Under the pieces are notes generated by a model. The model was given only the letters and a program-made list of their open reading frames with translations, was not told the origin of the DNA and did no database searches. Source: an uncultured Mycoplasmatota bacterium (GTDB lineage: Bacteria; Bacillota_I; Bacilli_A; RF39; UBA660). From it: DNA of 64,000 nt. A program made the position numbers and the translations under genes. The stretch covers positions 103 to 64,102 of the forward strand of contig CANRVY010000005.1 in NCBI GenBank assembly GCA_947643405.1. The letters are read 5' to 3'. Shown here one piece after another: positions 4,784 to 22,155 of the stretch (position 1 is the stretch's first letter; every line of letters begins with the position of its first letter).

Positions 4784-4900
4784 AGATGAGGGAAACTTCA
4801 TATCATAAAAAGAGATACATTCTAATATTCCCATGTTAGGTGTTTACTCTAAATTTTGTTTTGAGAAAACACCAATTCAAAGCTGAGTTGGTGTTTTCTT
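4784..4900 (+). ncRNA. Candidate small RNA (copy A) of the repeated module. TTGACA-17-TACAAT promoter at 4749-4777, 5-prime hairpin, terminator hairpin AAAACACCAAUUCA-AAGC-UGAGUUGGUGUUUU plus U-tract. Convergent with and 3-prime-overlapping the small peptide ORF 4906..4974.
   Basis: Consensus promoter. Conserved in 4 copies in the window with compensatory changes in the 5-prime hairpin (ATGAGG-tttt-CCTCAT, ATGAGG-gaaa-CTTCAT, ATGAAGG-aaa-CCTCAT). Strong intrinsic terminator. Confidence 0.45.
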
Positions 4901-4905
4901 TTAAA

Positions 4906-4974
4906 TTAGTTCTTATTTTTAAGAACAATGATAGTGTAAAACACAATCATTGCAAATGCAACAATTAATTCCAA
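4906..4974 (-). CDS. Small hydrophobic peptide, type I toxin-like: (M/L)ELIVAFAMIVFYTIIVLKNKN, 22 aa, TTG start in this copy
   Basis: Paralogous to ORFs at 30559..30627 and 30946..31014 (MELIVIFITIVFYTVLVLKKKD). Differences between copies are conservative in this frame but non-conservative in the overlapping alternative frame. Single TM segment plus Lys-rich tail. TTGTAA-17-TATAAT promoter near 5087-5115 and GAGGTGA RBS upstream of an overlapping upstream frame. Confidence 0.4.
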   Translation of the reverse strand: MELIVAFAMIVFYTIIVLKNKN

Positions 4975-5192
4975 AAGAATTTATCCTTTCTATATTTCTT
5001 GCAAACATAGAAATCACCTCTTTTCTATCATCCTTTGATGAAGAATCGAGTAAAACACCTAACTACTAGAATAGTACCTCTATATTTATTATACATGGAA
5101 TATCTACATTTTACAATAGTATCTATCAAAATAGCCAAGTTTGTTATCTTCAAAAGATTGACAAAGAAAATATACTATAGTACAATGTATAT

Positions 5193-5300
5193 AGATGAAG
5201 GAAACCTCATATCATAAAAAAAGAGAAACACTCTGATATTTGTGTGTTAGATGTTTACTCTAAACAGTTGCTAAAGAAAAGAGTCTAATAAGACTCTTTT
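5193..5300 (+). ncRNA. Candidate small RNA (copy A-prime). TTGACA-17-TACAAT promoter at 5158-5186. Ends at the bidirectional terminator shared with the 5303..5824 gene. No adjacent peptide ORF.
   Basis: Sequence paralogous to 4749-4860 and 30403-30500. Terminator hairpin 5273-5304. Confidence 0.35.
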
Positions 5301-5304
5301 CTTT
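5273..5304. terminator. Bidirectional intrinsic terminator (AAAGAAAAGAGUCU-AAUA-AGACUCUUUUCUUU)
   Basis: Perfect hairpin flanked by A-run and T-run. Overlaps the stop codon of the 5303..5824 gene. Confidence 0.6.
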
Positions 5305-5824
5305 ATTGTAATTTTAATTTTTTTTCTTTACAAGCTTTTTTTGTTGCTTTATAACAAGCATCATAAGAAGCTTCTGCTTTTCCCATTCTTTCGGAACTAA
5401 TTCCATCTATAACACCATATTGTGAATAATATGGATTTTTGAGTTTTGATTTATCGAATAATTTTGAAAGCATTAGACTTGCTACTCCTACACCAATAAA
5501 AGTAAATTGAATTGGTTTCATATCCGTTCTACCATACCAATAAATAAGTGAAAATATACTAGGAATTAACATACCAACTCCAAAATTTTTAAACATTGTA
5601 ACAGAATTTACTTTTTGTCTTACACTAATACTACAAATTTTATATTCTAAATATCTTTCAACTTCATCATCTGAAAAACCTAATTTATCTTTTAAATAAG
5701 CTTTGTGATTTAATAATGCTACTTCTAAAATTGTTTTGGCATCTCTTGGAATTACAATATCAGATGGTTTTACCTCAATCTTTATTTTTTTCTTATCATA
5801 TGGACTTTTTGCATAAAATTTCAT
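5303..5824 (-). CDS. Hypothetical membrane protein (173 aa, two predicted TM segments in the C-terminal half)
   Basis: ORF with a TM-like segment and no recognisable motif. Confidence 0.5.
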   Translation of the reverse strand: MKFYAKSPYDKKKIKIEVKPSDIVIPRDAKTILEVALLNHKAYLKDKLGFSDDEVERYLEYKICSISVRQKVNSVTMFKNFGVGMLIPSIFSLIYWYGRTDMKPIQFTFIGVGVASLMLSKLFDKSKLKNPYYSQYGVIDGISSERMGKAEASYDACYKATKKACKEKKLKLQ

Positions 5825-5922
5825 AAATATTCCCCCTTTTATGAATTGATTGTTATATTATCATAATTTTAGAAAATCGTCAAATCAAAAAAAGTCTTGA
5901 ATAATTTCAAAACTCTTTTTTA

Positions 5923-7242
5923 TTAATCTTCTAAAGTTTCCTTTAATCTTTTTTCATATTCTGCTTGCAATACATAAATATCTTTACTACTCATAAATAG
6001 TAAAACCGCATTTTTATGCTTCAATAATTTATCGACTGTATCTAAAGAAATATATTCTCCATTATTTAATTTCTCTAAAATAACCTCATAAGTAACATCA
6101 TCATAACCAACTTCTTCACGATCTACTCCAACATCCATAATATAAGATTTATCAGCTAGATTAAGAGCTTCCGCAAACTCTTCTGCAAATTCTTTGGTTC
6201 TAGATAAAGTATGTGTTTTTAAAATGGCTACAATTTCTTTATCTGGATATTTTTGTTTGGCTGCCTTTATGGTTACTTTTACTTCTGTTGGATGATGAGC
6301 GTAATCATCAACTGTTACAATATCACCAATCACATTTTCCTTAAATCTTCTTTTGGCACCACCAAATGTTTTTAAATTTTTAGCAACTTCTTTTGCATCC
6401 ATTCTTTCATAGTAACAAACACCAATAACTGCTAACGCATTTAAAAGCATATGTTTTCCAAAAAGTGGTAAATCAAAATGTCCATAATAATTTCCTTCTA
6501 CAAAGACATCAAATTCAGTTCCATCATTACTGTATTCTACATCTTTCGCTAAAATATCGTTATCCTCTTTTAAACCATAATAGAAAATTGGAGGATTCAC
6601 GTCCAAAGTATGAGTATAGGGATCATCTCCACATGCAATTACCATTTTTTCTGCTTTATTTGCAAAACTTTGATAAGCATCTATAACATCATCAATATCT
6701 TTGTAATAATCAATATGATCTAACTCTATATTTGTAATGATTGCGTATGCTGGATCATAATCTAAAAAATGTCTTTTATATTCACAAGCTTCAAGAGCAA
6801 AATAAGAATTTTCTTTACTTGCTTTTCCTGACCCATCTCCAATTAAATAATTGCAACCAGTAATATTGGATAATACATGTGATAACATTGCTGTTGTCGT
6901 CGTTTTTCCATGGCATCCAGAAATTGCAATTGTTTTAAACATTCCTGTTAATCTTCCAACCATTTCTTGATAAGTATAAATTTTCAAATCTAATTCTTTA
7001 GCTTTTGCTACTTCTGGATTATGGTCATTAAATGCATTCCCTTGTACAATAATCATACCATCTTCTATATTCTTTTCATCAAAAGGAAGAATCCGAATAT
7101 TTTTTTCTAATAATGCGTCTTCTGTAAAAAAATGGTCTGGTTTGTCACTACCCTCTACTTCATATCCTAAATCATGCATAATTTGTGCTAATGCACTCAT
7201 GCCAGTCCCTTTTATTCCTATAAAATGATACATATTTTTCAT
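5923..7242 (-). CDS. murC: UDP-N-acetylmuramate--L-alanine ligase
   Basis: N-terminus HFIGIKGTGMSALAQIM..GYEVEGSD and ISGCHGKTTTTAML P-loop are typical of MurC. Length 439 aa. Confidence 0.9.
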   Translation of the reverse strand: MKNMYHFIGIKGTGMSALAQIMHDLGYEVEGSDKPDHFFTEDALLEKNIRILPFDEKNIEDGMIIVQGNAFNDHNPEVAKAKELDLKIYTYQEMVGRLTGMFKTIAISGCHGKTTTTAMLSHVLSNITGCNYLIGDGSGKASKENSYFALEACEYKRHFLDYDPAYAIITNIELDHIDYYKDIDDVIDAYQSFANKAEKMVIACGDDPYTHTLDVNPPIFYYGLKEDNDILAKDVEYSNDGTEFDVFVEGNYYGHFDLPLFGKHMLLNALAVIGVCYYERMDAKEVAKNLKTFGGAKRRFKENVIGDIVTVDDYAHHPTEVKVTIKAAKQKYPDKEIVAILKTHTLSRTKEFAEEFAEALNLADKSYIMDVGVDREEVGYDDVTYEVILEKLNNGEYISLDTVDKLLKHKNAVLLFMSSKDIYVLQAEYEKRLKETLED

Positions 7243-7265
7243 CTCCTATTACTATTATACTTCAT

Positions 7266-7970
7266 TTATCCCAAAAAATTAAGTAGAAATGGTCCTAAAA
7301 TAAGAATCATAATCAATGGTACCACAAATAATACTGATATTATACTTATTTTATTTGGGATTTTGTTAATTTGTCCTTTGATTTCTAATATTTGTTTATC
7401 TCTTAGAAACGCAATCTGATTATACATTGTATCCAAAATACTATTTCCAAAAATATTCGTTTGTGTAATATTTAAAATAATGTTATTAACAGTTTCTGAC
7501 GGAATTCTTTTTTTCATATCTTCTAATGCTTCTAATAAAGATTTTCCAAAATGAACTTCTAATAATGCTCTTTTAAATTCATCTGATAATTCTGACTTCA
7601 CATTAGCTACTGTAACTTCTAAAGAATTTTCAAGATTTCTTCCAGATTCTAAGGTCAAGGTTAAAATTTCAAAAAAATATAAAGCTTCATGATCAAGTTT
7701 TCGAATGCGCATCTTTAAGGGTTTTGTGATAATCAAATAATAGTATGCATAGTACCAACCAAGTGTAATCGCAGGTGCAAAAATATAAGCATGTTTTGAT
7801 TCATATAATACAACTAAAAATGCAATCAATGAAGAAAGCAATTGAAGATTAATGAATGCTGTTGCATCAAATTTTGATTTTCCACCTAGCATATCTATCT
7901 GCATTTGAATTCTATCTAAATCTTTTTCACGATAAATTTTTCGAATAATATTATTTCTCAAGCCCATCAC
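7266..7970 (-). CDS. Tad/Cpa pilus assembly inner-membrane protein, TadC-like (T2SSF domain)
   Basis: 234 aa with two terminal TM segments and a central soluble domain. Sits in the operon downstream of tadB/tadA homologues. Confidence 0.6.
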   Translation of the reverse strand: MMGLRNNIIRKIYREKDLDRIQMQIDMLGGKSKFDATAFINLQLLSSLIAFLVVLYESKHAYIFAPAITLGWYYAYYYLIITKPLKMRIRKLDHEALYFFEILTLTLESGRNLENSLEVTVANVKSELSDEFKRALLEVHFGKSLLEALEDMKKRIPSETVNNIILNITQTNIFGNSILDTMYNQIAFLRDKQILEIKGQINKIPNKISIISVLFVVPLIMILILGPFLLNFLG

Positions 7971-9490
7971 ATCCTAACCGCCATAATTTTTCTGACACAG
8001 ATAATATAAATAACATATAAAATAACAATAAGAAAAGATAACATAATTCCAAGTGGTGTTGTAAAAAAAGGTAAGAAATAATCTGGATTGATAACACTTA
8101 CAAAAATTGTAAATAAAACAGGAACGCAGAATAATACATACATAATCATTTTAGAACTACTAGTAAGTGACTCTAATTCTAACCATAATTTCTTTTTACT
8201 AAATAATGATTCTTCAATAGAAGAAAATACCTTAATAATATTTCCTCCTGTTTTATTTAAAATACTTAAAGAAGCTGTTAGATAATTCACTTCTTCTAAT
8301 TTAATTCGATCAGCAAATCTACCAAAAACTACATCAACAGAGAGTCCATAAGAAAGTTCTGCACGCATTTTTTTGAATTCTTTTGCAATTGCTCCATCTA
8401 ATTCAGTCATTACGAGTTCAATTGCTTGTGTGATACTTCTTCCAGATTTAAATGCATTATTCATAATAATAATGGCTTGTAATAAATCATTTTCAATATG
8501 TTTTCGGTGCAATTTATGTTTTGAAATATATAAAATATCTGGGACAAAGAAGCCAAATAGAAATGGAAAAACGATTTCATAAGAATTCATAAGTTCTATT
8601 TGTAAAGTAGACGAAATAATTGCAATAACAACAAATAAAATAGCGATTAATATTTTGGCTGATACAAAATCTATTCCTGTTCTATTTTCGTCTCCCATAA
8701 TTCCAACATATTTCTCATATCGATTTGAATATTTTTTTAAAAAAACAGACTTTGAAACATATTTACTGATTCGTTTTAATAGTTTTGCATAGAATTGATA
8801 ATATCGATCAAATAAAGATAACGAATGATCATTTAAAGATTCAATGCTATATTTTCTAATCCTTTGTTCTAACTTTACACTTCTTCTATAAGATAACATT
8901 GCAAAGATAATACCTACTAAGGCGGCTATAATCCCTAACTGAATCAAAATAACTCCAAAAGTATCATCCTTAACAACATTGATCATCATCGCTTTTGTCG
9001 TCGTGTTTCCAGCGCTATCAGTAACTGTATAAACTAATTTTTTTAATCCAATTTCTTCAAAATTTAGTTCTTCTACATTGGTTGTTACTTGTCCTAATAA
9101 ATCCCCATCCTGTGTGTCATAAGCCTTTACATCTGCCATAGGATAAAGAATAGATCCGACTCTCATTTTTAAAGAGTCACTTCCTAATATAATAACTGGA
9201 GCATCTTTATCTATTTTATAAACTCCACTTTCTATTTCTGTTTTTCGATTGTAATAATCATAGGATTCTATTTTGATTTGGTAAGTTCCTGATTCATCTA
9301 ATACAATATTAACTGGTTTTTCTCCATCAATACTTTCACTACTACTTGGAATTCCATTTTTTAAAACTGTATAGGTATACCGCATTACTAAGCTATCAGG
9401 AGTATATGTAATTGTTAAATCTTGATTTGTCGGCTTTTCTTGAGCTTCCAAATTAAAACCAGTTTCTCCCAAATGTGGCACTAGAATCAC
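7967..9490 (-). CDS. TadB-like T2SSF-domain membrane protein with an additional N-terminal Ig-like (DUF5011-like) domain
   Basis: N-terminal roughly 190 aa with a KAYDTQDGDLLGQV motif (Ig-like/DUF5011-type), then TM segments and a T2SSF-like region. Overlaps neighbours by 4 bp (operon). Confidence 0.55.
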   Translation of the reverse strand: MILVPHLGETGFNLEAQEKPTNQDLTITYTPDSLVMRYTYTVLKNGIPSSSESIDGEKPVNIVLDESGTYQIKIESYDYYNRKTEIESGVYKIDKDAPVIILGSDSLKMRVGSILYPMADVKAYDTQDGDLLGQVTTNVEELNFEEIGLKKLVYTVTDSAGNTTTKAMMINVVKDDTFGVILIQLGIIAALVGIIFAMLSYRRSVKLEQRIRKYSIESLNDHSLSLFDRYYQFYAKLLKRISKYVSKSVFLKKYSNRYEKYVGIMGDENRTGIDFVSAKILIAILFVVIAIISSTLQIELMNSYEIVFPFLFGFFVPDILYISKHKLHRKHIENDLLQAIIIMNNAFKSGRSITQAIELVMTELDGAIAKEFKKMRAELSYGLSVDVVFGRFADRIKLEEVNYLTASLSILNKTGGNIIKVFSSIEESLFSKKKLWLELESLTSSSKMIMYVLFCVPVLFTIFVSVINPDYFLPFFTTPLGIMLSFLIVILYVIYIICVRKIMAVRM

Positions 9491-10822
9491 CTACTTTCTA
9501 TCAAATATATCCATAAGAGTATTAATTCCTCTTGATTTTATTGTTTTATAAACATTTGGAATACGATCATGTAAAATGAACTCCCCTAATACGTCTCCAT
9601 TTTCTTTCACACCATCTTGTCTAAAAGTAAAAATCTCTTCCATTTTAATTGCATTATCCTCTATTCCAGTTATTTCACAAATGCTTGTTACTTTTCTTCT
9701 TCCATCTGTTAATCTGGATACTTGAACAACAATATTAATAGCTCCTTCAATATATTCACGAATAGCTCTAATTGGAATTTCCATACCAGCCATCAATACC
9801 ATAGTTTCTAAACGATTTAATGCATCAAGTGGACTATTGGCATGCATTGTTGTTAAAGACCCGTTATGCCCAGTATTCATTGCTTGTAACATATCAAAAG
9901 CCTCTTTCCCACGAACTTCTCCAACAATAATACGGTCTGGTCTCATACGAAGAGAGTTAATTACCAAATCTCGAATTGTAATAGCTCCTTCCCCTTCATA
10001 ATTGGTTAATCTTGTTTCTAGTGAGATAACATGCTCTTGTTCCAATCTAAGTTCAGCCGCATCCTCAATTGTAATAATTCTCTCATTTGGAGAAATAAAA
10101 GAAGATAATACATTTAAAAGAGTTGTTTTTCCACTTCCTGTTCCACCACAAATAATAATGTTTAGTTTTGCTTCTACGCATGCTTCTAAAAATCTAGCCA
10201 TATATGGAGTAAGTGCTCCTGTTCTTAAAAAGTCCTCAATGTTTGCTAATTCTTCTTTAAATTTACGAATTGTTAAAACTGGCCCATTTAAGGAAAGAGG
10301 CGGAATAACCGCATTTAGTCTAGAACCATCTACAAGCCTTGCATCGACCATTGGATTTGCTGTATCAATTGTTCTTCCAAGTGGTTGAATCATCCTTTGA
10401 ATCGTCCTTAAAATATGATCTTCATTGATGAAAGAAATACTGTTGTCTCTTACAACACGACCTTCCAATTCAATATAAATTTCGTCTTTTCCATTTACCA
10501 TAATTTCTGTAATATCACGGTCTTCCAATAACTCTGTTAATGGCCCATTTCCACTGATTTCATTATCAATCAAGTTATATAAGTAACTTCTTTCAACATT
10601 TGATAAATCATATCCATCTATGGTTTTATCAATTTCTGTTTTCACAAAATCAGTCATATCTCTTGCTTTGGTAATATTATTATCAATTAAATTTTGAATG
10701 ATTTTAGTACGAAGTTCATCTAACAATATTTTATTAGGAAATGCTTCATAATCTGAAACATAAGCAACTTCTGGAGTTTCTATTTGAACGTCAAATTCTT
10801 CAACAAATTTTTTCTTTGCCAT
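9491..10822 (-). CDS. tadA: Tad/Cpa pilus secretion ATPase (CpaF/TadA family, type II/IV secretion NTPase)
   Basis: Walker A IICGGTGSGKTTLLN, a His-box region, and length 443 aa typical of CpaF/TadA. Confidence 0.85.
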   Translation of the reverse strand: MAKKKFVEEFDVQIETPEVAYVSDYEAFPNKILLDELRTKIIQNLIDNNITKARDMTDFVKTEIDKTIDGYDLSNVERSYLYNLIDNEISGNGPLTELLEDRDITEIMVNGKDEIYIELEGRVVRDNSISFINEDHILRTIQRMIQPLGRTIDTANPMVDARLVDGSRLNAVIPPLSLNGPVLTIRKFKEELANIEDFLRTGALTPYMARFLEACVEAKLNIIICGGTGSGKTTLLNVLSSFISPNERIITIEDAAELRLEQEHVISLETRLTNYEGEGAITIRDLVINSLRMRPDRIIVGEVRGKEAFDMLQAMNTGHNGSLTTMHANSPLDALNRLETMVLMAGMEIPIRAIREYIEGAINIVVQVSRLTDGRRKVTSICEITGIEDNAIKMEEIFTFRQDGVKENGDVLGEFILHDRIPNVYKTIKSRGINTLMDIFDRK

Positions 10823-10831
10823 AAATTCCTC

Positions 10832-11593
10832 CTATTTTTTATCTTTCATTAAGGATTCTGCTATATTTTTAAAACTATCCATTGTTTTCTTATATTTAGA
10901 AGCAATGCCTTTTTGGAGTGTTAAAATATTGCCTTCTAATATATATTTGTCTATATTTTTTAAATAAAAGTTTTTTGGAATTACATAATCAATGTTCTCT
11001 TTTAAAATATTTCTCACATCATATTTTGAGAACGGTTCTTTTCCTGGATGAGTGGATTCATTCAAAATGATTTTGTAATTATCTTGTTCCATATCTTTAT
11101 GAATGGCAATTCTAGTTGCCATGTTTTTTAAGTTAGATGGATCATTGTTGATGACATACAATACTTGATCACTTGCATCTAAAGCTACTAAGGTAATATC
11201 ATTTAAAAAATGGTTGGTATCTATTAAAATAACATCATACCTGTAAATTACTTTTGATAGTACAACCGAAATGTATTTACTCCCTATTTTACTTGCATTT
11301 CTAGGATCTTTTGGAGAAGGAATTACATCAATGTAGTCGTTATATTTTACTAAATATCTGTCGATAATTTCAAAACGATTGCTGTTTAGATCATCTACTA
11401 ACCTATAAATATCTTGTTCATTTGGAATGTTTAAAGAAAGAGCAATTGCTCCACCATATAAGTCTAAATCAATAATTAATACTTTCTTTTTTTGAAGGCT
11501 AAAAATACCTGCTAGATTTAAAAGTGTTGTTGTTTTTCCTGTTCCACCTTTTACAGAAGCAACTGTAAATATTTTTGCTTTTTCTAATGCCAT
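10832..11593 (-). CDS. TadZ/CpaE-like MinD/ParA-family P-loop ATPase
   Basis: Deviant Walker A VKGGTGKTTTLLNLAG near the N-terminus. Position immediately upstream of tadA. Confidence 0.7.
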   Translation of the reverse strand: MALEKAKIFTVASVKGGTGKTTTLLNLAGIFSLQKKKVLIIDLDLYGGAIALSLNIPNEQDIYRLVDDLNSNRFEIIDRYLVKYNDYIDVIPSPKDPRNASKIGSKYISVVLSKVIYRYDVILIDTNHFLNDITLVALDASDQVLYVINNDPSNLKNMATRIAIHKDMEQDNYKIILNESTHPGKEPFSKYDVRNILKENIDYVIPKNFYLKNIDKYILEGNILTLQKGIASKYKKTMDSFKNIAESLMKDKK

Positions 11594-11594
11594 A

Positions 11595-11972
11595 TTATCC
11601 CTCTTTCTTAATTCTTTTCTCTCCGTTTATAACTTCTCCTTGATATGATAATTTTAAAATCTGATTTTTAGGTAGAAAAATGGTATCTATTCGTTTTTCT
11701 ACCCTTACATAAACTTTATCATCTTTAATTTCAATTCTAAGTTCATAAATATCTTTGATATTTTCCTTTAATAGATTCGTCATATTAATCTTTAAAACGG
11801 TTTCTTCTTCATTTATATGGTCGAGTGCATAACCAATAGAATCTGCAATGGCATGTTCCATTTTTCTTTTTTCGTTATAAGCAAGTCCTAAATCTACAAT
11901 TAAGCCAACCAATAACAGTAAAAATGGCAATAAGATTAAAAACAGCACAAGGACTTGTCCTTTTTTATTCAT
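11595..11972 (-). CDS. TadE/TadG-like pseudopilin (Flp-type prepilin leader, MNKKG/QVLVLF)
   Basis: Short charged leader ending in Gly followed by a hydrophobic helix. 125 aa. Confidence 0.55.
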   Translation of the reverse strand: MNKKGQVLVLFLILLPFLLLLVGLIVDLGLAYNEKRKMEHAIADSIGYALDHINEEETVLKINMTNLLKENIKDIYELRIEIKDDKVYVRVEKRIDTIFLPKNQILKLSYQGEVINGEKRIKKEG

Positions 11973-12300
11973 TTGATATCACCCTGCTCGCCTTGATTTG
12001 ATAGCTCTTCCCTAAGATCCGATTAAGTCCTGGTGTATTCACTACTACTTTTTTTGACAAGGTGATCGTAGTTGTTGTACTTTTGGTTTCTATATTTTTT
12101 GTCAATTCTTTCTGTTTTACATAGTAATCTACTTCAGTCATTTTATTCTGTCTTACTAATTCAACTACATAATCTAAGTCATTTTCTAATGTATACTCTT
12201 TATAAAGAATATTTCCAAAGTCTATTGCTCCTAATATTAATAGCAATAAAACTGGTAATATTATAATAAATTCGACTAATGCTTGCCCTTTATTCTTCAT
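11965..12300 (-). CDS. TadE-like pseudopilin / Flp-type pilin-like protein (MKNKG/QALVEF, Glu+5 and aromatic +6)
   Basis: G/XXXXE(F/Y) Flp/TadE-type processing motif, hydrophobic N-terminal helix, 111 aa. First gene of the tad operon. Confidence 0.55.
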   Translation of the reverse strand: MKNKGQALVEFIIILPVLLLLILGAIDFGNILYKEYTLENDLDYVVELVRQNKMTEVDYYVKQKELTKNIETKSTTTTITLSKKVVVNTPGLNRILGKSYQIKASRVISNE

Positions 12301-12385: not shown

Positions 12386-12973
12386 TTAGTCCGTAAGTGG
12401 AGCATAAGCAATAAATCGTTTTACTTTCTGTTTTTCATCAAGTTCTATAGTTGCTTTCGATAAAGCAATAGCAGTATGCATTAGCTCTACATCAAGTTCT
12501 TTTATATGATAAATTCCATTTTCTTGATAAGCATGGTTTGAATCTGTATAAATTTCTATAAGTTCTTTTTTTGTTAGCTCACAATGAATAACTGGTTTTC
12601 GATAGTCTTCATAGTCTTCTTTTAAAACAATTTCTTTTAATAAATTATCAAATACATAACATTTTCCTTGATAGAAAAATTCTACCCATCCATGATTGTA
12701 ATCACTATTTGGTCTTTCCATGTTTGGAAACATTTTTTGATAAAGAAATCCTAATTCATTCCCAACATCGATTCGTCCTCTAATTAGTTTATCTGTATCT
12801 TCTAACCCCATAATTGCCCATGCGCTATAATAGTAACAAATCTGCTGATATCGATAACCTAAAAACTTTTCAAAAGATTCTATTCCATAAGGGGAAGGTC
12901 TTCTATCTATGAATACTTTTTTAGTTTGTTCAAAAAAATATTCATTGACTGTTAAATGCTGAATGGTTGACAT
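12386..12973 (-). CDS. Hypothetical protein (195 aa)
   Basis: ORF only, with no recognisable motif. Confidence 0.4.
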   Translation of the reverse strand: MSTIQHLTVNEYFFEQTKKVFIDRRPSPYGIESFEKFLGYRYQQICYYYSAWAIMGLEDTDKLIRGRIDVGNELGFLYQKMFPNMERPNSDYNHGWVEFFYQGKCYVFDNLLKEIVLKEDYEDYRKPVIHCELTKKELIEIYTDSNHAYQENGIYHIKELDVELMHTAIALSKATIELDEKQKVKRFIAYAPLTD

Positions 12974-12982
12974 ATTTTCTCC

Positions 12983-13609
12983 CTAATTTTTATAAACATA
13001 TTGATTGCCTTCACTATGGTCTACAATTGGGATATCCAAACCTAAATTATTACAGAAAGAAGATAATTCTTCTGCATACCAATCATCATCTTCTCCTTGT
13101 AAAAGCATTTGAAAGCCAGGAATTCCAATTGCTTTAATCATAGAAGCTGGAACACTTCCATTTACTTGATATTCATTTCTTGCATAACTATAAAAATTAT
13201 GAAGACCTTTTCGCTCACTCAGCTCCAGCCATTCTCCATAAGGTACATAAATTGTTTTATAGGCTTCTACCATTGGAGATACAATGATAGTCATATTAGG
13301 TTTTATAAACGTTTCAAATTCTAGATCTCCAAATCCCTCTTTTTCTAATAAAGAAATACGTTTTCCATCATTACAATTATCACTATAAGAAAAATATCCT
13401 GAGAGTTGATTTCTTGGAAGTAATCCTTGTTTTAAAATTTTTTTTACTATTTCTAATTGTTCTTGATAACTACCAAATCGAATACCATGATATAGATAAA
13501 GATTATCAAAATAAAGTGGTAGGTCTTCTCTTACATTTGGATGTATGGTAGAAAATAATTCCATTTTTAATTCTTCTAATTCTTTTATTTTTTGTTCTGT
13601 TAGTCTCAT
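12983..13609 (-). CDS. Hypothetical protein (208 aa)
   Basis: ORF only. Confidence 0.4.
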   Translation of the reverse strand: MRLTEQKIKELEELKMELFSTIHPNVREDLPLYFDNLYLYHGIRFGSYQEQLEIVKKILKQGLLPRNQLSGYFSYSDNCNDGKRISLLEKEGFGDLEFETFIKPNMTIIVSPMVEAYKTIYVPYGEWLELSERKGLHNFYSYARNEYQVNGSVPASMIKAIGIPGFQMLLQGEDDDWYAEELSSFCNNLGLDIPIVDHSEGNQYVYKN

Positions 13610-13658
13610 AGCATCACTTCTTTCTTGGGGGTTATTCTATATTACTTTGAATAAGATG

Positions 13659-14117
13659 TCAAGAATGATTATCCTCTATGATGTTATTAGAATTTTTATT
13701 TAATAGGGAACATATGACATTGAAATGTTGAATTATATCACTATTTGATACAGAAGAACAATCAATAGATATTCCAAATTTTTTATCTGCACTGTTATTA
13801 ATCTTACTTAAAACTTTCGCTTCCCTATCCCCTATTTTGTATATATCAACAGTGCAATTTTCATATTCGTATATATGTAACTCTTTTTTATAAATTCTTA
13901 TTAATTTATCTAAATCAATATCAATTATTTTATCCTTTGTAATATAGAATTCAAATTCAATCAAATCAATATTAAAACAAATGTCTCCCTTATCCTCTAC
14001 TGATATTACTGGCATATAGTATTTTTGTCTATAATATTCTCCATTAATATTTATAAAATGATTATTATATGATTGAAAAGTTGTTTTATAATGTAATTCA
14101 TTTAATTTTATATTCAA
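13659..14117 (-). CDS. Hypothetical protein (152 aa)
   Basis: ORF only, very AT-rich. Confidence 0.35.
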   Translation of the reverse strand: MNIKLNELHYKTTFQSYNNHFININGEYYRQKYYMPVISVEDKGDICFNIDLIEFEFYITKDKIIDIDLDKLIRIYKKELHIYEYENCTVDIYKIGDREAKVLSKINNSADKKFGISIDCSSVSNSDIIQHFNVICSLLNKNSNNIIEDNHS

Positions 14118-14293: not shown

Positions 14294-14326
14294 ACAAAAA
14301 AAAGAGTTATTTTTTCATAACTCTTT
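14294..14326 (-). terminator. Intrinsic terminator downstream of the SPNTG surface protein gene
   Basis: Hairpin AAAGAGUUAU...AUAACUCUUU followed by a U-run on the minus strand. Confidence 0.55.
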
Positions 14327-14331
14327 TTTGA

Positions 14332-14892
14332 TTAAGCTTTTACATTTTTATTTTTACGAACTAATACAATCATTAATCCTAATGATAAAAGAGCTGCTCC
14401 AGCTAATGGGAATACATAAGCTACGTCTCCAGTATTTGGACTACTTGGCGCACCCTTTTTCTTATATTTGATACATAATGAATGCGCTACATCAGCAACA
14501 TCAGTACTCAATAAGCTATTTGCATTTGTAATATTTGAAAAAGTATAAACTCCATCTGCAGATGGTTGTACATATTGACGATCTACTAATACAGTGTCAA
14601 TCTCATATCCTTCGTTTACATTTACTTGAAATGTTTGAGTACATCCTGGATTTACTTCTACATAAAGTTGTTGACCACTCTTGATTGTAATAATGTTACT
14701 TGAACTACTATCTGCTGGTGTTACTGTACAACTATTTTTTGTTGTCGTAATTGTTCCATAGTCAATTCCACTTCCATCTTGTCCATTTATTACATCAATT
14801 TTCAAGTTTGCTGCACTTGCACTTGTTGCTCCAAGCCATAGAGAACAAAATGCAATTGCAAAAAAGCTCATCATTTTTATTGTTCTTTTCAT
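14332..14892 (-). CDS. Secreted cell-wall-anchored protein with an SPNTG sorting signal (signal peptide, then SPNTG + hydrophobic segment + RKNKNVKA tail)
   Basis: N-terminal signal peptide ending in the ASA/AN cleavage-site region (WLGATSASAANL). C-terminal SPNTG, TM segment and positively charged tail form a canonical sortase substrate architecture. SPxTG matches class B sortase motifs of Clostridia. Confidence 0.7.
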   Translation of the reverse strand: MKRTIKMMSFFAIAFCSLWLGATSASAANLKIDVINGQDGSGIDYGTITTTKNSCTVTPADSSSSNIITIKSGQQLYVEVNPGCTQTFQVNVNEGYEIDTVLVDRQYVQPSADGVYTFSNITNANSLLSTDVADVAHSLCIKYKKKGAPSSPNTGDVAYVFPLAGAALLSLGLMIVLVRKNKNVKA

Positions 14893-14969
14893 AAAACACT
14901 CTCCCTTATCTTACATTACCATTATCTAACAAATCTTTCATAATGTCAATCAGAGAATTCGACATTTTT

Positions 14970-17432
14970 CTAATTTGACACATTTTTTTCAGGAACTATA
15001 TAAGTCATCACTCTTTTTGCTACTAATGTAAAACGTTCATCTGGCTCTACATCTGTACACGTTGAAAGCGTCAAAAGATGATCTTTTGTTCCCACTTCTA
15101 ATTCACTAGAAAGAATGGTTTTTTGCTTTATTTCATCCAAATACTTTTGGAATGACTCTTCACTATTAAAGTTAATAATATGGGCTTCTTTTGAAGAATC
15201 AAATTCATAAGCTGCATAAATTTCATATTGATATGTTGCTTTTGGAGTAATAAGCCATATATATTTATGTTCTTCAAAATAAGATTCTTTTCTATATTTT
15301 TTGAGAGACCCAAACATGGTATTGTTTCGCATATTGTGGCCATACAAAATTGTATTATCTGAGCTAAAGTCTTGATTGGCACGATAATCTATAAAAATGG
15401 ATCCACTTATATTTGGCTTTTTATTATATAAATGTTTTAAATAATATTCATTGTCTTCTGCTCTTGTGATTGGATAATTAATTTCTGTATCATCAATTCT
15501 AATCCAAGCAACGATCTCATCATTAATTTCATACAACGGTTCAAAATCGACTTGTGGAATATCATCATTAATTGGAAATTCTGTCCTATCTGGATCTGGT
15601 TTGATAATTGGTAAAGGTTGGCTTTGCCCAATTTGATTTTGGATTTTTCCATAACTATCAGAAGCACTCCAATATTGCCAAACAATTCTTCCTAACAAGA
15701 ATAGTGAAATTGAAAAAATTAAAATCAAAATGCTTAGTACTGCCATATAAACTTTTTGGTTTGCAAGTTTATTCTTCAAAACTTTTTTCTGAATTGCTTT
15801 TGCTTCCTTGATATCCAAAACTTGTGTTAAGTTAAGATAAGTGCTTTCATATAAATCTGGATTGCTAAGATAACTAACAGATCTGTAAAGCATTTCTAAA
15901 TGATTGTTATAGAACTTCCACTGCTCTGGATCTTTTGCTAAATACTTACTGATTCTTTTTTGCTCTAATTCATACATTTTTGCCATATAATCATTAAACT
16001 TTGAAAGAAGCATTTCTAGTTCACTATGTGTAATGGTATGATTTCTAACACTTTTATTAATTTCCCTGACAAAATGCTCCTCAATGATTCGCTTTATTAA
16101 CCAGTCCGTTCTTGGTAATCTTGGCTTATATTCTAATAAATGAATAAATTCCTCTGACAGTTTTGATATTGTTAGAGGTATGTGCAAAATAACTTGCTCA
16201 TAATAATTTGCCAAAACTTCGCTATCTTCATCTTCGAAAATCAATTCTAATTCAGATTCATAAGCTTCTAATAATTCAACAATTTTCTTTTTTCTTCCAT
16301 CAGTTTGATATTCTAGTTTTAAAAAAGGACGATTTTCTATAATTTCTGGAGATAATAAAACAGTTTGATCTGTTAAGTCTTCTAGTGTTAAAACAAGACG
16401 ATTGGAATCATTAGATGGTTTTTCTCCTTTTATCGCTTCTATAATCTGTCTTTCATAATCTTCTATAATTTCTTTATAAAGAGAAGGCGCTACTTCTTCA
16501 AAAAAGCGAAGACGATTTATTAAACTTTGATCTACAATTTCCGTTTCAATGCTCAAATAGGAATAGTTCTCATAGAAAAAACTGGCACCTAAAATTTCTT
16601 TTACCATGTACTGCTTTTTACTTTTAATCTCTTCATATTTATTATGAGCAAAAGACTTGTATTTATATCTTTTTTCAAATAAATCAAACAAATAAGCAAA
16701 ATAAATCATATTTCCTTCTAAAGTTGGTTTTATAACACTTTCATTAATATAAATATCTGGTCCTTGATAAATAAATGGCTTCTTTTCTTCTAGTGTTACA
16801 ACATGAATGGTTTCTTCCCAACCTAATTGTCCAAGCAAGTCTAAAATCAAAAAACGAAATAATTCTGCATACATTGCTGATGATAAATCTAAATTTCTAT
16901 CTTTTTCAAAAATGACAAAAAATAAATATCGAAGATAATAATGTGGCATTTTCCTATTTTTATAAATCATTAAATAATTTAATAAATCTTTTAATTCAAA
17001 ATCATTTAAAATTCTATTTTTTTTCATTTGCTTGTGATAAAATCTTCCAACATCATCTGCTGCTTCTTCAAAATGAATTTCTTTCAAAAATTTTTGAAAT
17101 GGTTCAAATTCTTTTGGATATTGTTTAGATAAATCTAATAAATTTCTGCAAGCTGCATTTTCATAAAATTGAAATGGATTTTCTTTCATTTTTTCTAAAT
17201 AAAATCTTGTTAAAATTTTCATTGTAATCGGCAAATAACTAAAATTCTTTGTTTTTTTCATGATAAAAACTGTACTATTGAGTAATCGCTCAAATTCATT
17301 TAAATAGTACTGTTTGCTCATGCCATCACCAAAAAAAGAACAATTATCGTCTAGATTTAATAACTGTTTGCACAATGCTTCATCATCTAAAATATGTACT
17401 AATTGTTCAATTGTAGTTTTCCCCTTTTTCAT
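14970..17432 (-). CDS. Class B sortase fused to a large (roughly 550-aa) N-terminal cytoplasmic domain of unknown function. Single TM segment, then the sortase domain with catalytic TLSTC motif.
   Basis: C-terminal roughly 230 aa match the SrtB pattern (NTILYGHNM...MF..L.KY, TLSTCTD with catalytic Cys). A TM helix (VYMAVLSILILIFSISLFLLGRIVW) precedes it. The N-terminal 550 aa are helical with no recognised motif. Confidence 0.7.
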   Translation of the reverse strand: MKKGKTTIEQLVHILDDEALCKQLLNLDDNCSFFGDGMSKQYYLNEFERLLNSTVFIMKKTKNFSYLPITMKILTRFYLEKMKENPFQFYENAACRNLLDLSKQYPKEFEPFQKFLKEIHFEEAADDVGRFYHKQMKKNRILNDFELKDLLNYLMIYKNRKMPHYYLRYLFFVIFEKDRNLDLSSAMYAELFRFLILDLLGQLGWEETIHVVTLEEKKPFIYQGPDIYINESVIKPTLEGNMIYFAYLFDLFEKRYKYKSFAHNKYEEIKSKKQYMVKEILGASFFYENYSYLSIETEIVDQSLINRLRFFEEVAPSLYKEIIEDYERQIIEAIKGEKPSNDSNRLVLTLEDLTDQTVLLSPEIIENRPFLKLEYQTDGRKKKIVELLEAYESELELIFEDEDSEVLANYYEQVILHIPLTISKLSEEFIHLLEYKPRLPRTDWLIKRIIEEHFVREINKSVRNHTITHSELEMLLSKFNDYMAKMYELEQKRISKYLAKDPEQWKFYNNHLEMLYRSVSYLSNPDLYESTYLNLTQVLDIKEAKAIQKKVLKNKLANQKVYMAVLSILILIFSISLFLLGRIVWQYWSASDSYGKIQNQIGQSQPLPIIKPDPDRTEFPINDDIPQVDFEPLYEINDEIVAWIRIDDTEINYPITRAEDNEYYLKHLYNKKPNISGSIFIDYRANQDFSSDNTILYGHNMRNNTMFGSLKKYRKESYFEEHKYIWLITPKATYQYEIYAAYEFDSSKEAHIINFNSEESFQKYLDEIKQKTILSSELEVGTKDHLLTLSTCTDVEPDERFTLVAKRVMTYIVPEKNVSN

Positions 17433-17437
17433 CTTTT

Positions 17438-17617
17438 CTACTCCGATTTTTCTTCTTTTATAATTTGACTTTGTTTTAAGTAGTGATTTGCTAAATGAAG
17501 AAATTTAGTGGCCTCATTTTCACGTTTGCAAGTTAAAGCTTCTTTATATTTTTCAAAGTAATAAACCATTTTTTCGCGATCTGTTAACTGACGTTTAAAA
17601 TAATTTGTATCTTCCAC
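17438..17617 (-). CDS. Small ORF (59 aa, GTG start, GGAG RBS) ending 5 bp upstream of the sortase-fusion gene. Not in the ORF track because it is under 60 aa.
   Basis: Manual translation gives VEDTNYFKRQLTDREKMVYYFEKYKEALTCKRENEATKFLHLANHYLKQSQIIKEEKSE. Tight spacing to the downstream gene suggests an operon. Confidence 0.35.
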   Translation of the reverse strand: MEDTNYFKRQLTDREKMVYYFEKYKEALTCKRENEATKFLHLANHYLKQSQIIKEEKSE

Positions 17618-17711: not shown

Positions 17712-18551
17712 TTAATTTTTCCTTTTCGTCACATATTCTTTAATCTGACTATCAGTTAAGCCTGTTATCTCTTTGATAAAAGGCAAATCAATCCCCTTCT
17801 TTAGCATAGAAAAAGCAGTTTCTAGTTTTCCAACCATAATTCCTTCTTTCTTTCCTCGCTTCTCTCCTCTTTGCTCTGCATGATATTTTATCATTGATGT
17901 GGCTTGTTCAAAGCTCATTTCCATACTTTCTTCCTCCTTCAATTTTTGATATATTTTATAATCCATATTATAATATTTAATATTCTCTATAAAACTTTGA
18001 AATGTTTTCTTTTCTTCTAATTCTAATAAAGTTTTTGTCACTACTTTTTTTCCTAATCTATCCAAGTTAAATATTCTTGCATAATCATAATCTATCCCAT
18101 TTCTTTTTTTCAATGCTTCGTAAATATTCCATATTTTAATCTTCGATAAATTTCCAAATTGCTCATCACGATTTCTATTTATTTCTTCATATTCTTTCAG
18201 TACTTCTGAACTTTGATAGGGATAATTTAATATCAAATATAGTTCTACAGGTTTTACATGCTCGTAGAATTTTCCTGGATTTTGTCTCATATAAAAACCT
18301 GATATATACATTTTACTTCTCGGTTCAATATTTTCTAAATTTTTATTTTGAAGTTCTACAATTATAATTCTCTTTTCTGTTTTAATAACCAAATCACTGA
18401 TTCGATATCGTAGATTTTCTTGAAAAGCATCTTTAAAAAACTGTTTTAAATATTCTTTTTTTCGAAACATATTTTTAAAAATAGTATCATATCGTAATCC
18501 ATAAATTTTTATATCTTTTTTATTTTTGAATGACTGAATACGATTTTGCAT
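17712..18551 (-). CDS. Rpn/YhgA-like PD-(D/E)XK nuclease family putative transposase
   Basis: IVELQ nuclease-core motif in the N-terminal half. C-terminal Gly-rich EQRGEKRGKKEG...ITGLTDSQIKEY tail is characteristic of the Rpn (transposase_31) family. Confidence 0.55.
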   Translation of the reverse strand: MQNRIQSFKNKKDIKIYGLRYDTIFKNMFRKKEYLKQFFKDAFQENLRYRISDLVIKTEKRIIIVELQNKNLENIEPRSKMYISGFYMRQNPGKFYEHVKPVELYLILNYPYQSSEVLKEYEEINRNRDEQFGNLSKIKIWNIYEALKKRNGIDYDYARIFNLDRLGKKVVTKTLLELEEKKTFQSFIENIKYYNMDYKIYQKLKEEESMEMSFEQATSMIKYHAEQRGEKRGKKEGIMVGKLETAFSMLKKGIDLPFIKEITGLTDSQIKEYVTKRKN

Positions 18552-20256: not shown

Positions 20257-22155
20257 TTAACGATAAAGTTCAATTAGATATCCTACTACATTTTCAAAAT
20301 CAATTGTTTCTAAGCTTCCCAATTCTTTATTTGCACTTTCATTACTATTTGGAACCTCAATTACAATTGACTTTTCCTCACCTGAAGCAATCTCTTGATT
20401 TAATATAACATTTCTTACATTTTCATTATCTTTATCAAATAATTTTAATTGACCATTTAAAGTTCTTGCATCAGTACCATTATTTTTTACATTTAATGTT
20501 ACAGATAACGTTGCTTTATCTTCTGATAAAATTGCTTTTTGATAAGTGACAATCCAGTTATTATAATCTATTATATGATTTCCTGTTGTACTCGTTAACT
20601 TCTTTTCATTTGAAGGTTCTTTTTTCACACCATTACAAGTATATCCTTCTTCTAAATAATATTCATTTGCTTCATCATAAGTTAGTTTCCATGTGTCATC
20701 TTTTTCTTCTTCTGTCGCTTTTTCATAGTTACGATCAATAAAGACTTGATAAATATATTTCTTGTCATCATATTTAAAAGTATATTTTTGCCCATCTGTA
20801 TTTTTTAATTCTTGACTGAATAATTTAATCATAGCTTTTCTTTCCATATAAATATCTGCATCACGCATTGTAACAGTTGTATGTTCTTCTGATCTTAAAA
20901 TGTTCTTACTAGTATTGTCATATATAAATGTAATACTCTTATTTTCTAAACTATTGTCTTCTTCGTTTTCTGTTTCTATTGTACATACTAAATTTGATGT
21001 TTTTGGCTGTTCTGGTTCTTTTATCTCTGAGTCATTTGGCTTGTTTGGTTGTTCATTCATTTGAGGTTCTAAAACAAATACATAAACAACAGCAATTGAA
21101 GCTATCAATAAAAGAGTAATAATCATAAGTATTATAATACTTGTTTTTCCTTTTTTCTTTTCTTTTCTTCTTTTTTTACCATCATAGATTTGTTCAAACT
21201 TAACTGGTTCTTCTACTGGTGGTTCTGGATTTAAATTTGGTTCTACTGGTGGTATTCCTACTACACTCATATTATTAACTGGAGTTACCACCTCTGTAAT
21301 TGGTATTACAGGTGGTACTGTAGGTTCTATTTCTGAATTTGGTACTGAAGTCTGATTTATATTTTCTACTGGTATTATGTTTGGTTGAACTGGTTCTATA
21401 GATGGTATTGGTTGTACATTTTGAATTACTGGTTCTTGTGTTAGATTTTGAGTCACTTCTGGCATTGAAGTAGAAGTTGGCTCTTCTGATAATTCTGTAT
21501 TTTTGTCAGTTTCTATTGAAGAGGTTGATTGTACACTGAAAGTGATTGGTTTCTGTGCTTCATTTTGATTTGTAGAGATAGTCACTTCTGGCGTTGAAAT
21601 AGAAGTTGGCTCTACATTTTGGCCACCTTCTAAATTTTCTACTGAATCAGACATTTCTACGTTTGATTCTAATACTTCATCACTATTTCCTACAAACTGT
21701 ATTTCCTCTGGTTGGTCCTTTATTTTAGAACTCTTTTTCATTAAAAAGCTTGGCAAAGTAATATTTGCATCTATTTCTTCTTTTTTAGGGAGCGTAAAGA
21801 AATTTGGATACTGATCCATTTTTTCTTCAAACAAGTCAGAACTTACAATACTCATTCTTTCAATCATACTAAAATCGACAAATTCAATTTCATTATTCAC
21901 TTCTCCTGAAAATACTTGTTTAAAATATGAAAATACTTGGCGTCTTTCAGATTCTGTTTCGCATTTAAATAACAAGTATTGATCTTTTAAAAATGAAACT
22001 CTTCCAATATAAATATCAAAACGAACATCCTTTTTTTTCTTAGGAACTTCGGTGTATGCCAAATACTGATTTTGGTTATATATAATTTTAAACCCTACAG
22101 CTATCTCAACATAATGGTCTTCTTTTGTTGTATCTTTTACTTTTTTCTTTTCCAT
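20257..22155 (-). CDS. Membrane-anchored hypothetical protein. Cytoplasmic N-domain, Pro/Thr/Glu-rich low-complexity linker, single TM, roughly 270-aa extracellular C-domain.
   Basis: PEV/PTS-rich repeats (STPEVTISTNQ, STSMPEVTQN, PVIPITEVVTPV). KKRRKEKKKGK followed by a TM helix. Confidence 0.5.
   Translation of the reverse strand: MEKKKVKDTTKEDHYVEIAVGFKIIYNQNQYLAYTEVPKKKKDVRFDIYIGRVSFLKDQYLLFKCETESERRQVFSYFKQVFSGEVNNEIEFVDFSMIERMSIVSSDLFEEKMDQYPNFFTLPKKEEIDANITLPSFLMKKSSKIKDQPEEIQFVGNSDEVLESNVEMSDSVENLEGGQNVEPTSISTPEVTISTNQNEAQKPITFSVQSTSSIETDKNTELSEEPTSTSMPEVTQNLTQEPVIQNVQPIPSIEPVQPNIIPVENINQTSVPNSEIEPTVPPVIPITEVVTPVNNMSVVGIPPVEPNLNPEPPVEEPVKFEQIYDGKKRRKEKKKGKTSIIILMIITLLLIASIAVVYVFVLEPQMNEQPNKPNDSEIKEPEQPKTSNLVCTIETENEEDNSLENKSITFIYDNTSKNILRSEEHTTVTMRDADIYMERKAMIKLFSQELKNTDGQKYTFKYDDKKYIYQVFIDRNYEKATEEEKDDTWKLTYDEANEYYLEEGYTCNGVKKEPSNEKKLTSTTGNHIIDYNNWIVTYQKAILSEDKATLSVTLNVKNNGTDARTLNGQLKLFDKDNENVRNVILNQEIASGEEKSIVIEVPNSNESANKELGSLETIDFENVVGYLIELYR

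Follow-up and report, generated by a model that had tools for sequence, protein, structure and literature searches.

Why should a sortase carry most of its length on the cytoplasmic side of the membrane? The question is raised by a gene in a 64,000-nucleotide stretch of DNA from an uncultured Mycoplasmatota bacterium (contig CANRVY010000005.1 of assembly GCA_947643405.1, positions 103 to 64,102; the whole stretch is referred to below as the window). The gene encodes an 820-aa protein in which a large N-terminal domain, one transmembrane (TM) helix and a class B sortase domain follow one another. Upstream is an open reading frame (ORF) for a 59-aa protein and downstream is one for a 186-aa secreted protein with an SPNTG sorting signal, here termed the cargo. 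We refer to the three genes together as the triad (Table 1). Our analysis indicates that the N-terminal domain is most likely a pseudo-peptidase, homologous to a rare family of standalone proteins with an HExxH motif, and that the 59-aa protein is probably the ancestral partner of this domain and not of the sortase.

A class B sortase behind a large cytoplasmic domain

The class B sortase region occupies residues of about 566-810. TIGR03064 matches residues 566-801 at 205.4 bits (cutoff 153.75) and the Pfam Sortase model matches residues 644-808 at 52 bits (cutoff 26.6). In a sequence search of the PDB with the whole protein, sortases were the only matches, the best being SrtB of B. anthracis, S. 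aureus, L. monocytogenes, C. difficile and C. perfringens (E 1e-36 to 1e-31). The sortase beta-barrel fold is present with the additions of the SrtB type. The catalytic residues H699, C792 and R800 are invariant across 13 sequences and align with those of B. anthracis SrtB. These residues and the TIGR03064 match bear out the SrtB-type catalytic domain that a first-pass annotation, made from the letters of the stretch, had placed at the C-terminus. By homology, the domain is an intact extracellular class B sortase, and transpeptidase activity is predicted.

An N-terminal signal peptide is absent, and the sole hydropathy peak corresponds to the TM helix. The net charge is +6 on the N-terminal side of this helix and 0 on the C-terminal side. 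Because there is only one TM helix, with this distribution of charge, and because the sortase domain must be extracellular, residues 1-556 are predicted to be cytoplasmic. This agrees with the single TM helix and the cytoplasmic domain of roughly 550 residues claimed in the first-pass annotation. The arrangement departs from that of typical SrtB proteins, in which the cytoplasmic N-terminus is short, whereas here 556 residues precede the membrane. The 120 nearest SrtB homologues listed are 158-346 aa in length with identities of no more than 45%, one fragment excepted. Conservation along the fusion protein peaks in the TM helix, where mean pairwise identity is 0.74, compared with 0.69 for the catalytic domain.

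A frameshift or mis-assembly that joined two genes can be set aside as a practically negligible explanation. Nothing in its favour came to light. More than 13 independent assemblies, produced in different studies, contain an unbroken ORF of 793-832 aa, which refutes it, and conservation in the alignment of the fusions is continuous through the domain junction and the TM helix. The recurrence of full-length fusions shows that the 820-aa ORF is genuine.

The N-terminal domain and its relatives

Residues 1-556 were modelled with AlphaFold2, with distant relatives in the alignment, at a predicted local distance difference test (pLDDT) score of 89.1 and a predicted template modelling (pTM) score of 0.75 (model m92c2e718288e). 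The model has three parts. The first is an all-helical subdomain with the conserved motifs PFxFYENxAC and ILNDFELKDLLNYLMIYKN. The second, a zincin-like core, consists of a three-stranded sheet (residues 208-230), an 'active-site' helix (238-263) that carries a degenerate motif, and a 'glutamate' helix (295-314) with E296 at its start. In the model, the order of sheet, active-site helix and glutamate helix would be that of a zincin core, for which structural confirmation is weak. The third part is again helical and includes the family-wide motif P-x-L-x-x-E-Y-x-x-D-G-x-x-K-x-x-x-E-L-L at residues 369-388, which resembles a tetratricopeptide repeat (TPR)-like hairpin (PDB 4y6w). From residue 541 one continuous helix is predicted to run through the membrane. 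Mean pairwise identity is 0.64-0.66 in the first two subdomains and 0.56 in the third, which puts conservation of the N-terminal domain close to that of the catalytic domain.

Profile searches of the PDB with alignments of the zincin-like core gave several matches that we rejected as chance. These were the non-significant matches to calmodulin, CidA and BoNT/X (alignments A5 and A11) and a TPR-like match to the PxLxxEYxxDG motif.

The first-pass annotation had described the N-terminal domain as lacking any recognisable motif. This stands for scans of Pfam, NCBIfam, PHROGs and PADLOC, in which no family matched; scans of the whole fusion against Pfam, PHROGs and PADLOC likewise gave nothing outside the sortase. 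It fails for a profile search of 1.84 billion representative proteins. Only 15 proteins with the domain were found in that search. Nine are standalone proteins of 295-887 aa (E 1.5e-10 to 5.5e-4) and the rest are fusions or fragments. A word-indexed homology search with the core alignment returned three proteins only and was uninformative; a tenth standalone relative, P0028, came from it.

Each standalone relative contains exactly one HExxH. The ten standalone cores are only 20-29% identical to one another, and their alignment has no invariant columns other than the H, E and H of this motif and a Glu 41 residues later, a combination that reads as the signature of gluzincins. In the fusion protein, D250-L-F-E-K254 falls in the HExxH columns by two independent alignments (MAFFT with eight standalone relatives and hmmsearch with nine), so that the first His is replaced by Asp, the catalytic Glu by Leu and the second His by Lys. 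The same columns read VLLEK and FELEK in the distant fusions P0014 and P0015, and no fusion lineage has HExxH. E296, in LSIETEI, is the counterpart of the invariant third-ligand Glu (within SIESDA or EIDAR in standalone proteins); this column is Q in P0014 and D in P0015. The likeness extends beyond the core. The HExxH motif is separated from PxLxxEYxxDGxxK by 119-134 aa in eight of nine standalone relatives (194 in P0026) and by 124 aa in the fusion, and homology to the standalone protein P0018 reaches the helical subdomain too, in an alignment that starts at residue 15.

Based on these alignments, the N-terminal domain appears to be a degenerate homologue of a rare, uncharacterised family of standalone cytoplasmic HExxH+Glu proteins. 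Since HExxH is replaced in every sortase fusion, the domain is most likely a pseudo-peptidase. Its fold elements and the third Glu seem to have been retained by purifying selection. We assign it to no named peptidase family; it matched nothing in NCBIfam, PHROGs, PADLOC or, by sequence, the PDB. The suggestion in the first-pass annotation of a second enzymatic activity is, for a canonical activity, unlikely, given homology to HExxH+Glu proteins combined with a degenerate motif in the fusion itself.

The small protein and a probable ancestral two-gene cassette

The 59-aa protein matched no family in Pfam, NCBIfam, PHROGs or PADLOC. As read from its sequence only, it looks like a cytoplasmic helical hairpin. 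We rejected the idea that it is a Flp pilin or a secreted peptide, as it lacks a hydrophobic segment and a G/xxxxEY motif. Its ORF precedes the fusion gene in 13/13 loci, with 69-97% identity in the close clade and 43-44% in the two most distant loci compared, L022 and L023. Synonymous and non-synonymous changes number 11 and 7 in L008, 9 and 7 in L009, 3 and 1 in L006, and 10 and 17 in the more distant L003. Because the ORF is kept in all loci and synonymous changes exceed non-synonymous ones in three of the four relatives compared, we interpret it as a real gene, one probably coupled in translation to the sortase gene. These counts suggest that it is kept under purifying selection in the fusion lineages, with that in L003 running the opposite way.

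ORFs of 58-64 aa also precede all four standalone relatives with readable contigs (P0018, P0022, P0019 and P0025), overlapping or abutting the longer gene in each case (Table 1). Small proteins associated with standalone relatives and the 59-aa protein have in common a pattern (LTDxE…YY…K.A), length and position. A BLASTP comparison of the 59-aa protein with the small protein of the P0018 locus gave E = 0.004, and the small proteins of L022 and L023 clearly bridge the fusion-associated and standalone-associated sequences. The small ORF before P0025 showed no BLASTP similarity to the 59-aa protein and is counted as positional evidence only. Because a coupled, similar small ORF precedes each of these standalone relatives, it is the zincin-like domain, rather than the sortase, that the small protein probably partnered ancestrally. 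The ancestral unit would be a two-gene cytoplasmic cassette of a small protein and a putative metallopeptidase. The 59-aa ORF is accordingly, as first described, a real and tightly coupled gene, and what changes is its apparent allegiance, which is to the zincin-like domain.

The standalone cassettes are on low-GC contigs from gut metagenomes, among housekeeping genes that offer no functional clue, and their HExxH+Glu proteins match no Pfam or NCBIfam model. At one locus, P0021 and P0022 are tandem paralogues, and a gene with a Spo0A_C domain lies immediately upstream of them.

The cargo protein

The cargo begins with a Sec signal peptide (cut between ASA and A). Its mature domain measures about 120 aa and contains three cysteines, and after it come the SPNTG motif, a hydrophobic segment and a basic tail, RKNKNVKA. 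In sequence, these signals are MKRTIKMMSFFAIAFCSLWLGATSASA, followed by A after the cut, and SPNTG-DVAYVFPLAGAALLSLGLMIVLV-RKNKNVKA at the C-terminus. TIGR01167, for the LPXTG anchor, matches at 23.6 bits (cutoff 15.9), and Pfam Gram_pos_anchor scores 18.7, slightly under its cutoff of 20. The cargo is the sole protein with a sorting signal within the window.

A gene for the cargo is found directly downstream of the fusion in 13/13 loci, and the sorting motif is [S/D]PxTG throughout. This supports the earlier proposal of a dedicated substrate, and the cargo is, from adjacency and co-conservation, a candidate for the dedicated substrate of the fused sortase. SrtB of C. difficile cuts (S/P)PXTG between T and G (PMC4155245). 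SPNTG fits that motif and, by analogy, the cargo is expected to be cleaved between the T and G of SPNTG and joined to peptidoglycan or to another acceptor amine.

Two further stretches of the cargo are strongly conserved. C-x-K-[YF]-[KR]-K-x-G, directly ahead of the sorting motif, is invariant in all homologues, including that of L022 at 32% identity, and could be an extended recognition element for the sortase or the site of an acceptor lysine. The TM segment and tail retain invariant positions even in the most divergent loci, and in these too the tail ends in an invariant Ala with K or E before it. To our knowledge, the tails of ordinary sorting signals are not conserved in this way.

Distribution and genomic context

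Three sources together gave the 13 distinct loci: look-ups of contigs, a scan that covered 185,579 species genomes, and mapping by tblastn. The small ORF, the fusion gene and the cargo gene occur in the same order in all of them, with identity in the N-terminal domain down to about 27%. A search with residues 1-560 returned 13 proteins, of which 12 are 793-832 aa in length and have the sortase domain, at identities down to 49%; the other, P0008 (331 aa), is a truncated copy of the fusion. The profile search added the distant fusions P0014 (824 aa) and P0015 (826 aa). Fusions of this architecture are very rare. They form three clusters at 50% identity among the 1.84 billion representatives, and a pattern-based scan found them in 8 of the 185,579 species genomes. 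The hosts are uncultured gut metagenome-assembled genomes (MAGs) labelled 'Tenericutes' or 'Bacilli'. One locus, L010 (identical to L002), is on contig CAYYCR010000040.1 of a MAG labelled 'uncultured Muribaculaceae' (Bacteroidota). Its fusion is 65% identical and the genes around it resemble those of the Bacilli/'Tenericutes' loci, and the contig is probably mis-binned. Downstream of its triad is a GmrSD-type gene, and upstream is a gene for a 473-aa N_methyl (pilin-like) protein.

The glycyl-tRNA synthetase (GlyRS) gene is upstream of the triad in six loci. A Tad operon is downstream on the same strand in 7/13 loci (the window, L001, L003, L007, L008, L009 and L012). L002, L022 and L023 carry the triad with no Tad operon next to it, and the 1.8 kb available in L011 shows none either. 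The order GlyRS-triad-Tad is conserved across species-level genomes, and the Rpn gene and the three small genes at 12386-14117 are variable insertions. The GC content of 27-30% at the triad is like that of the rest of the window. With GC content matching the surroundings and synteny conserved, the proposal that the cluster is part of an accessory island is not supported. The neighbours on which it was built are real: the Tad locus is next to the cluster, and the Rpn gene matches TIGR01784 at 55 bits (cutoff 52.1). Adjacency to the Tad operon is conserved synteny within one clade, and is not proof of shared function.

The genes at these two insertion spots, one on either side of the triad, differ between loci. 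The Rpn-family PD-(D/E)XK gene is present in L006, is replaced by one with 43% identity in L008 and was not detected in L004, L007 or L011. Of the three small genes at 12386-14117 (minus strand), L007 has two, and L003, L008 and L012 lack all of them; the 152-aa protein encoded at this spot scores at the threshold for DUF3201. Unrelated genes lie between the triad and the Tad operon in the window, L007 and L009.

Organisation and expression of the triad

Each of the three ORFs maps, at the positions first given, to the minus strand; transcription runs in the order 59-aa, 820-aa, 186-aa. The first ends 5 nt ahead of the sortase start, as had been noted, and the GGAG of the 820-aa ORF sits within the last codons of the 59-aa ORF. 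A 77-nt gap separates the fusion gene from the cargo gene and contains a promoter-like sequence for the latter. Both hexamers of this promoter and the ribosome-binding site (RBS) AAGGGAG are invariant in eight loci, while the spacer and flanks vary. An intrinsic terminator ends the triad, and equivalent hairpins are found in L008 and L003. The cargo gene and the Tad operon each have their own promoter, with a terminator between them, and the Tad promoter is conserved. The Rpn-family gene (17712-18551), just upstream of the triad, also ends in a terminator hairpin.

We considered control of the cargo by a cyclic di-GMP-type riboswitch or leader, as in C. difficile, and rejected it, as no Rfam match lies near the locus. 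A scan of the window with Rfam yielded a T-box leader at 34682-34875 (minus strand, 113.5 bits) and a lysine riboswitch at 38432-38607 (plus strand, 110 bits), and no other match at gathering score.

Table 1. Features of the triad and of the standalone cassettes. Positions are those of the window; cassettes are given in the coordinates of their own loci.
Feature	Residues	Position	Strand	Remarks
59-aa small ORF		17438-17617	minus	GTG start; AAGGAG RBS 9 nt upstream
820-aa fusion ORF		14970-17432	minus	ATG start 5 nt past small-ORF stop; predicted cytoplasmic pseudo-zincin domain, one TM helix and extracellular class B sortase
All-helical N-terminal subdomain	1-203	16824-17432	minus	From AlphaFold2 model and invariant columns
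Zincin-like core	204-336	16425-16823	minus	
DLFEK, putative counterpart of HExxH	250-254	16671-16685	minus	
E296, putative counterpart of third-ligand Glu	296	16545-16547	minus	
C-terminal helical subdomain	351-540	15813-16382	minus	
Predicted TM helix, N-in/C-out	561-585	15678-15752	minus	Sole hydropathy peak
Class B sortase catalytic domain	629-810	15003-15548	minus	
Catalytic H699	699	15336-15338	minus	In LYGHNM
Catalytic C792	792	15057-15059	minus	In TLSTC
Catalytic R800	800	15033-15035	minus	
Cargo promoter-like sequence		14921-14949	minus	TTGACA-17 nt-GATAAT; 11/12 consensus matches; within the 77-nt gap
186-aa SPNTG cargo ORF		14332-14892	minus	RBS AAGGGAG
C-x-K-[YF]-[KR]-K-x-G of cargo	140-155	14421-14475	minus	
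SPNTG motif of cargo		14428-14442	minus	
Intrinsic terminator		14296-14329	minus	13-bp stem and U-run; -12.8 kcal/mol, z = -5.2 vs shuffles
L014 cassette		5828-7689		Small ORF and P0018; 4-nt overlap
L017 cassette		2323-5719		Small ORF and P0022; 8-nt overlap; paralogue P0021 just upstream
L021 cassette		475-2046		Small ORF and P0019; abutting
L005 cassette		524-1844		Small ORF and P0025; overlapping

Proposed function and alternatives

The reading we prefer, with a probability of about 0.5, is that of a dedicated sortase-cargo pair whose sortase captured a cytoplasmic module, the pseudo-peptidase and the 59-aa protein together serving as a non-catalytic module for binding or regulation. In one lineage, the standalone peptidase gene of a two-gene cassette would have become fused to a class B sortase, with loss of its catalytic residues. 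The sortase would cleave the cargo between T and G of SPNTG and attach it to the wall, and the module would be held directly beneath the membrane by the TM helix. Because no part of the sortase is more conserved than its TM helix, and the TM segment and tail of the cargo retain invariant positions, we favour as ligand the cytoplasmic end of the cargo sorting signal, namely its basic tail, which ends in the conserved (K/E)A, together with the unusually conserved TM segments. The enzyme may recognise its one cargo both outside and inside the membrane, or may retain and sense the C-peptide that is released by cleavage. In this more specific form, with the dead zincin and its small partner as a cytoplasmic receptor that grips the cargo tail and TM segment or the C-peptide and provides selection or feedback across the membrane, the proposal is tentative and carries a low probability. 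The tail-reading step is a hypothesis, not a result. If true, this would be the first sortase for which the 'passive' charged tail of a sorting signal is specifically read from inside the cell.

Several points weigh against the capture of a pseudo-peptidase module as we describe it. No Pfam or PDB family passed its threshold for the zincin assignment, which depends on sequence homology and motif logic; over the standalone HExxH helix, the local Pfam matches are sub-threshold (DUF6782, 'putative metallopeptidase', E 0.019-0.052; SprT-like, E 0.096). Foldseek and other fold searches with the whole domain gave nothing significant, only generic helical repeats and one weak zincin. The carboxylate-rich site (D250, E253, E296, E267/E268 and H263) may bind metal, and residual or altered catalysis is possible. 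The link between the N-terminal domain and the cargo tail is purely inferred, and what the module binds is a guess. Lastly, the picture of one sortase and one cargo covers the 64-kb window, and others may be encoded elsewhere in the genome.

Instead of reading the cargo, the cytoplasmic domain could serve as a localisation scaffold that docks the sortase onto the Tad machine (CpaF, CpaE, TadB or TadC) or onto another cytoplasmic landmark, which would put cargo anchoring at the pilus base or at a defined site. The model has a large helical-repeat-like surface of the kind typical of scaffolds, the strong conservation of the TM helix would fit packing against partners in the membrane, and in 7/13 loci the same Tad operon comes directly after the triad on that strand. 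We consider this unlikely nonetheless, as the Tad operon is not adjacent in L002, L022 or L023 nor within the 1.8 kb of L011, unrelated genes intervene in three of the loci where it is, the cargo gene and Tad operon are divided by a terminator and a separate conserved promoter, and the standalone relatives are not near Tad genes. A further possibility is that the pseudo-peptidase and the small protein sense a metabolite, a peptide or the level of the small protein itself and switch the sortase through the membrane. The predicted continuous helix from residue 541 through the membrane, in a TM and juxtamembrane linker that are highly conserved, would suit such signalling, and translational coupling would supply the small partner in fixed proportion. 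The cargo's own strong, invariant promoter implies that control could be post-translational. Signal gating seems improbable, in that a helix crossing the membrane once transmits signals poorly unless the protein forms oligomers, Pfam and NCBIfam revealed no recognisable ligand-binding or signalling domain, and literature searches gave no precedent for allosteric control of a sortase across the membrane.

The remaining alternatives give the locus a different chemistry. One keeps the N-terminal domain as an enzyme with a non-canonical site, for example one that processes the C-peptide or the small protein. Conservation is complete or almost complete at E253, K254, E296, Y266 and K273, the stretch H263-N-K-Y-E-E does not vary in the close clade or in P0014, and the standalone relatives look like active peptidases. 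H263 is not retained in P0015, however, and in every fusion lineage other residues (D/E/V/F, L/E and K) stand in place of the two metal-binding His and the general-base Glu. Loss of precisely the catalytic triad from a retained scaffold is the usual signature of a pseudoenzyme. We regard residual activity as distinctly unlikely. The sortase might also polymerise its cargo instead of anchoring it to the wall, building a short fibre of 186-aa subunits linked head-to-tail via a conserved Lys, in the manner of the class B pilus sortase of S. pyogenes. The closest structures include class B pilus sortases (3psq, Spy0129; 4y4q), K142 and K145 of the cargo are invariant within C-x-K-[YF]-[KR]-K-x-G just upstream of the sorting motif, and the locus provides one sortase, one cargo and a strong cargo promoter. 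Set against this, the cargo is one small domain of about 120 aa with no pilin motif and no pilin-domain match in Pfam or NCBIfam, its SPxTG motif fits the wall-anchoring C. difficile type, and no second, housekeeping sortase is encoded within 64 kb. Polymerisation therefore appears to be a long shot, and the capture of a non-catalytic module by a sortase with a dedicated cargo remains the reading we prefer.

Comparison with known systems

Sortases are treated as small extracellular enzymes in which the membrane anchor is merely a tether. How they find substrates that emerge from Sec is poorly understood, and so is what the hydrophobic segment, the basic tail and the C-peptide left by cleavage do. 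Our literature searches for sortases with cytoplasmic domains, for fusions and for pseudoproteases found nothing relevant. The sortase and the cargo are of known kinds, and what is new is the fusion of a cytoplasmic, apparently dead zincin-like domain, together with its probable ancestral small partner, to a class B sortase.

The SrtB proteins of C. difficile (CD2718; 4ux7, 5gyj) and C. perfringens (5b23) are about 220-250 aa long with a short signal-anchor and have several scattered substrates, whereas the fusion has a 556-aa cytoplasmic domain and apparently one adjacent cargo. The best PDB matches by sequence are the SrtB proteins of S. aureus and B. anthracis (1rz2, 1qx6, 1ng5, 2oqw; E about 1e-36). 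With IsdC, these exemplify a class B sortase encoded beside a single dedicated cargo, a principle that they have in common with the fusion locus. They differ from it in their NPQTN/NPKTG motifs and in lacking a cytoplasmic domain, and no haem-uptake genes are near the fusion locus. In S. pyogenes, the helper of Spy0129/SrtC1 (3psq), SipA, is an inactive signal-peptidase homologue. SipA is a separate, extracellular protein of an unrelated serine-peptidase family, unlike the pseudo-peptidase described here, which is zincin-like, cytoplasmic and covalently fused, and no pilin-type cargo is evident in our case. Gluzincins have HExxH and the additional Glu (for example the minigluzincin projannalysin, 4jix; DUF6782; SprT-like proteins). 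The protein in the window lacks HExxH, matches no curated family over threshold, and has its core between two large helical subdomains without a solved counterpart.

In the fusion, a conserved cytoplasmic domain makes up two thirds of a sortase, and it is accompanied by a conserved small partner, an unusually conserved TM helix and a single neighbouring cargo whose tail is conserved. The implication is that anchoring of protein at the surface would be coupled physically, at least in this lineage, to something in the cell interior. The triad would be a compact three-gene system with which to dissect this coupling in a heterologous Gram-positive host. The relatives of the N-terminal domain also reveal an undescribed and very rare cassette in low-GC gut bacteria, made up of genes for a small protein and an HExxH+Glu protein, and the fusion would be a clear example of a peptidase scaffold reused after loss of its catalytic site. 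The reach of these implications is limited by the tiny uncultured clade in which the fusion occurs and by the inferred function of the module.

Other genes in the window

The Tad operon of the window (7266-12300, minus strand) encodes TadE, a TadE/G-like protein, a CpaE/ParA-like protein, CpaF, a 507-aa TadB-like protein with a Bact_surface_Ig-like ectodomain, and TadC. It is followed by a gene for a Mur ligase (5923-7242). Except for TadE, no ORF of the Flp pilin type (G/xxxxEY) was identified in the 64-kb window, and a prepilin peptidase was not found among the ORFs scanned.

Just beyond the GlyRS gene is a gene for a 632-aa protein (20257-22155, minus strand) that has no Pfam match. This protein consists of a long low-complexity stretch rich in Pro, Glu, Thr and Val, one hydrophobic segment and a C-terminal globular part. 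Also present is a gene for a 550-aa protein (2387-4039, minus strand) with radical SAM, SPASM and MazG-like pyrophosphohydrolase regions, the MazG match being weak, with no stretch that passes alone. The combination of radical SAM, SPASM and MazG-like regions in one protein looks unusual.

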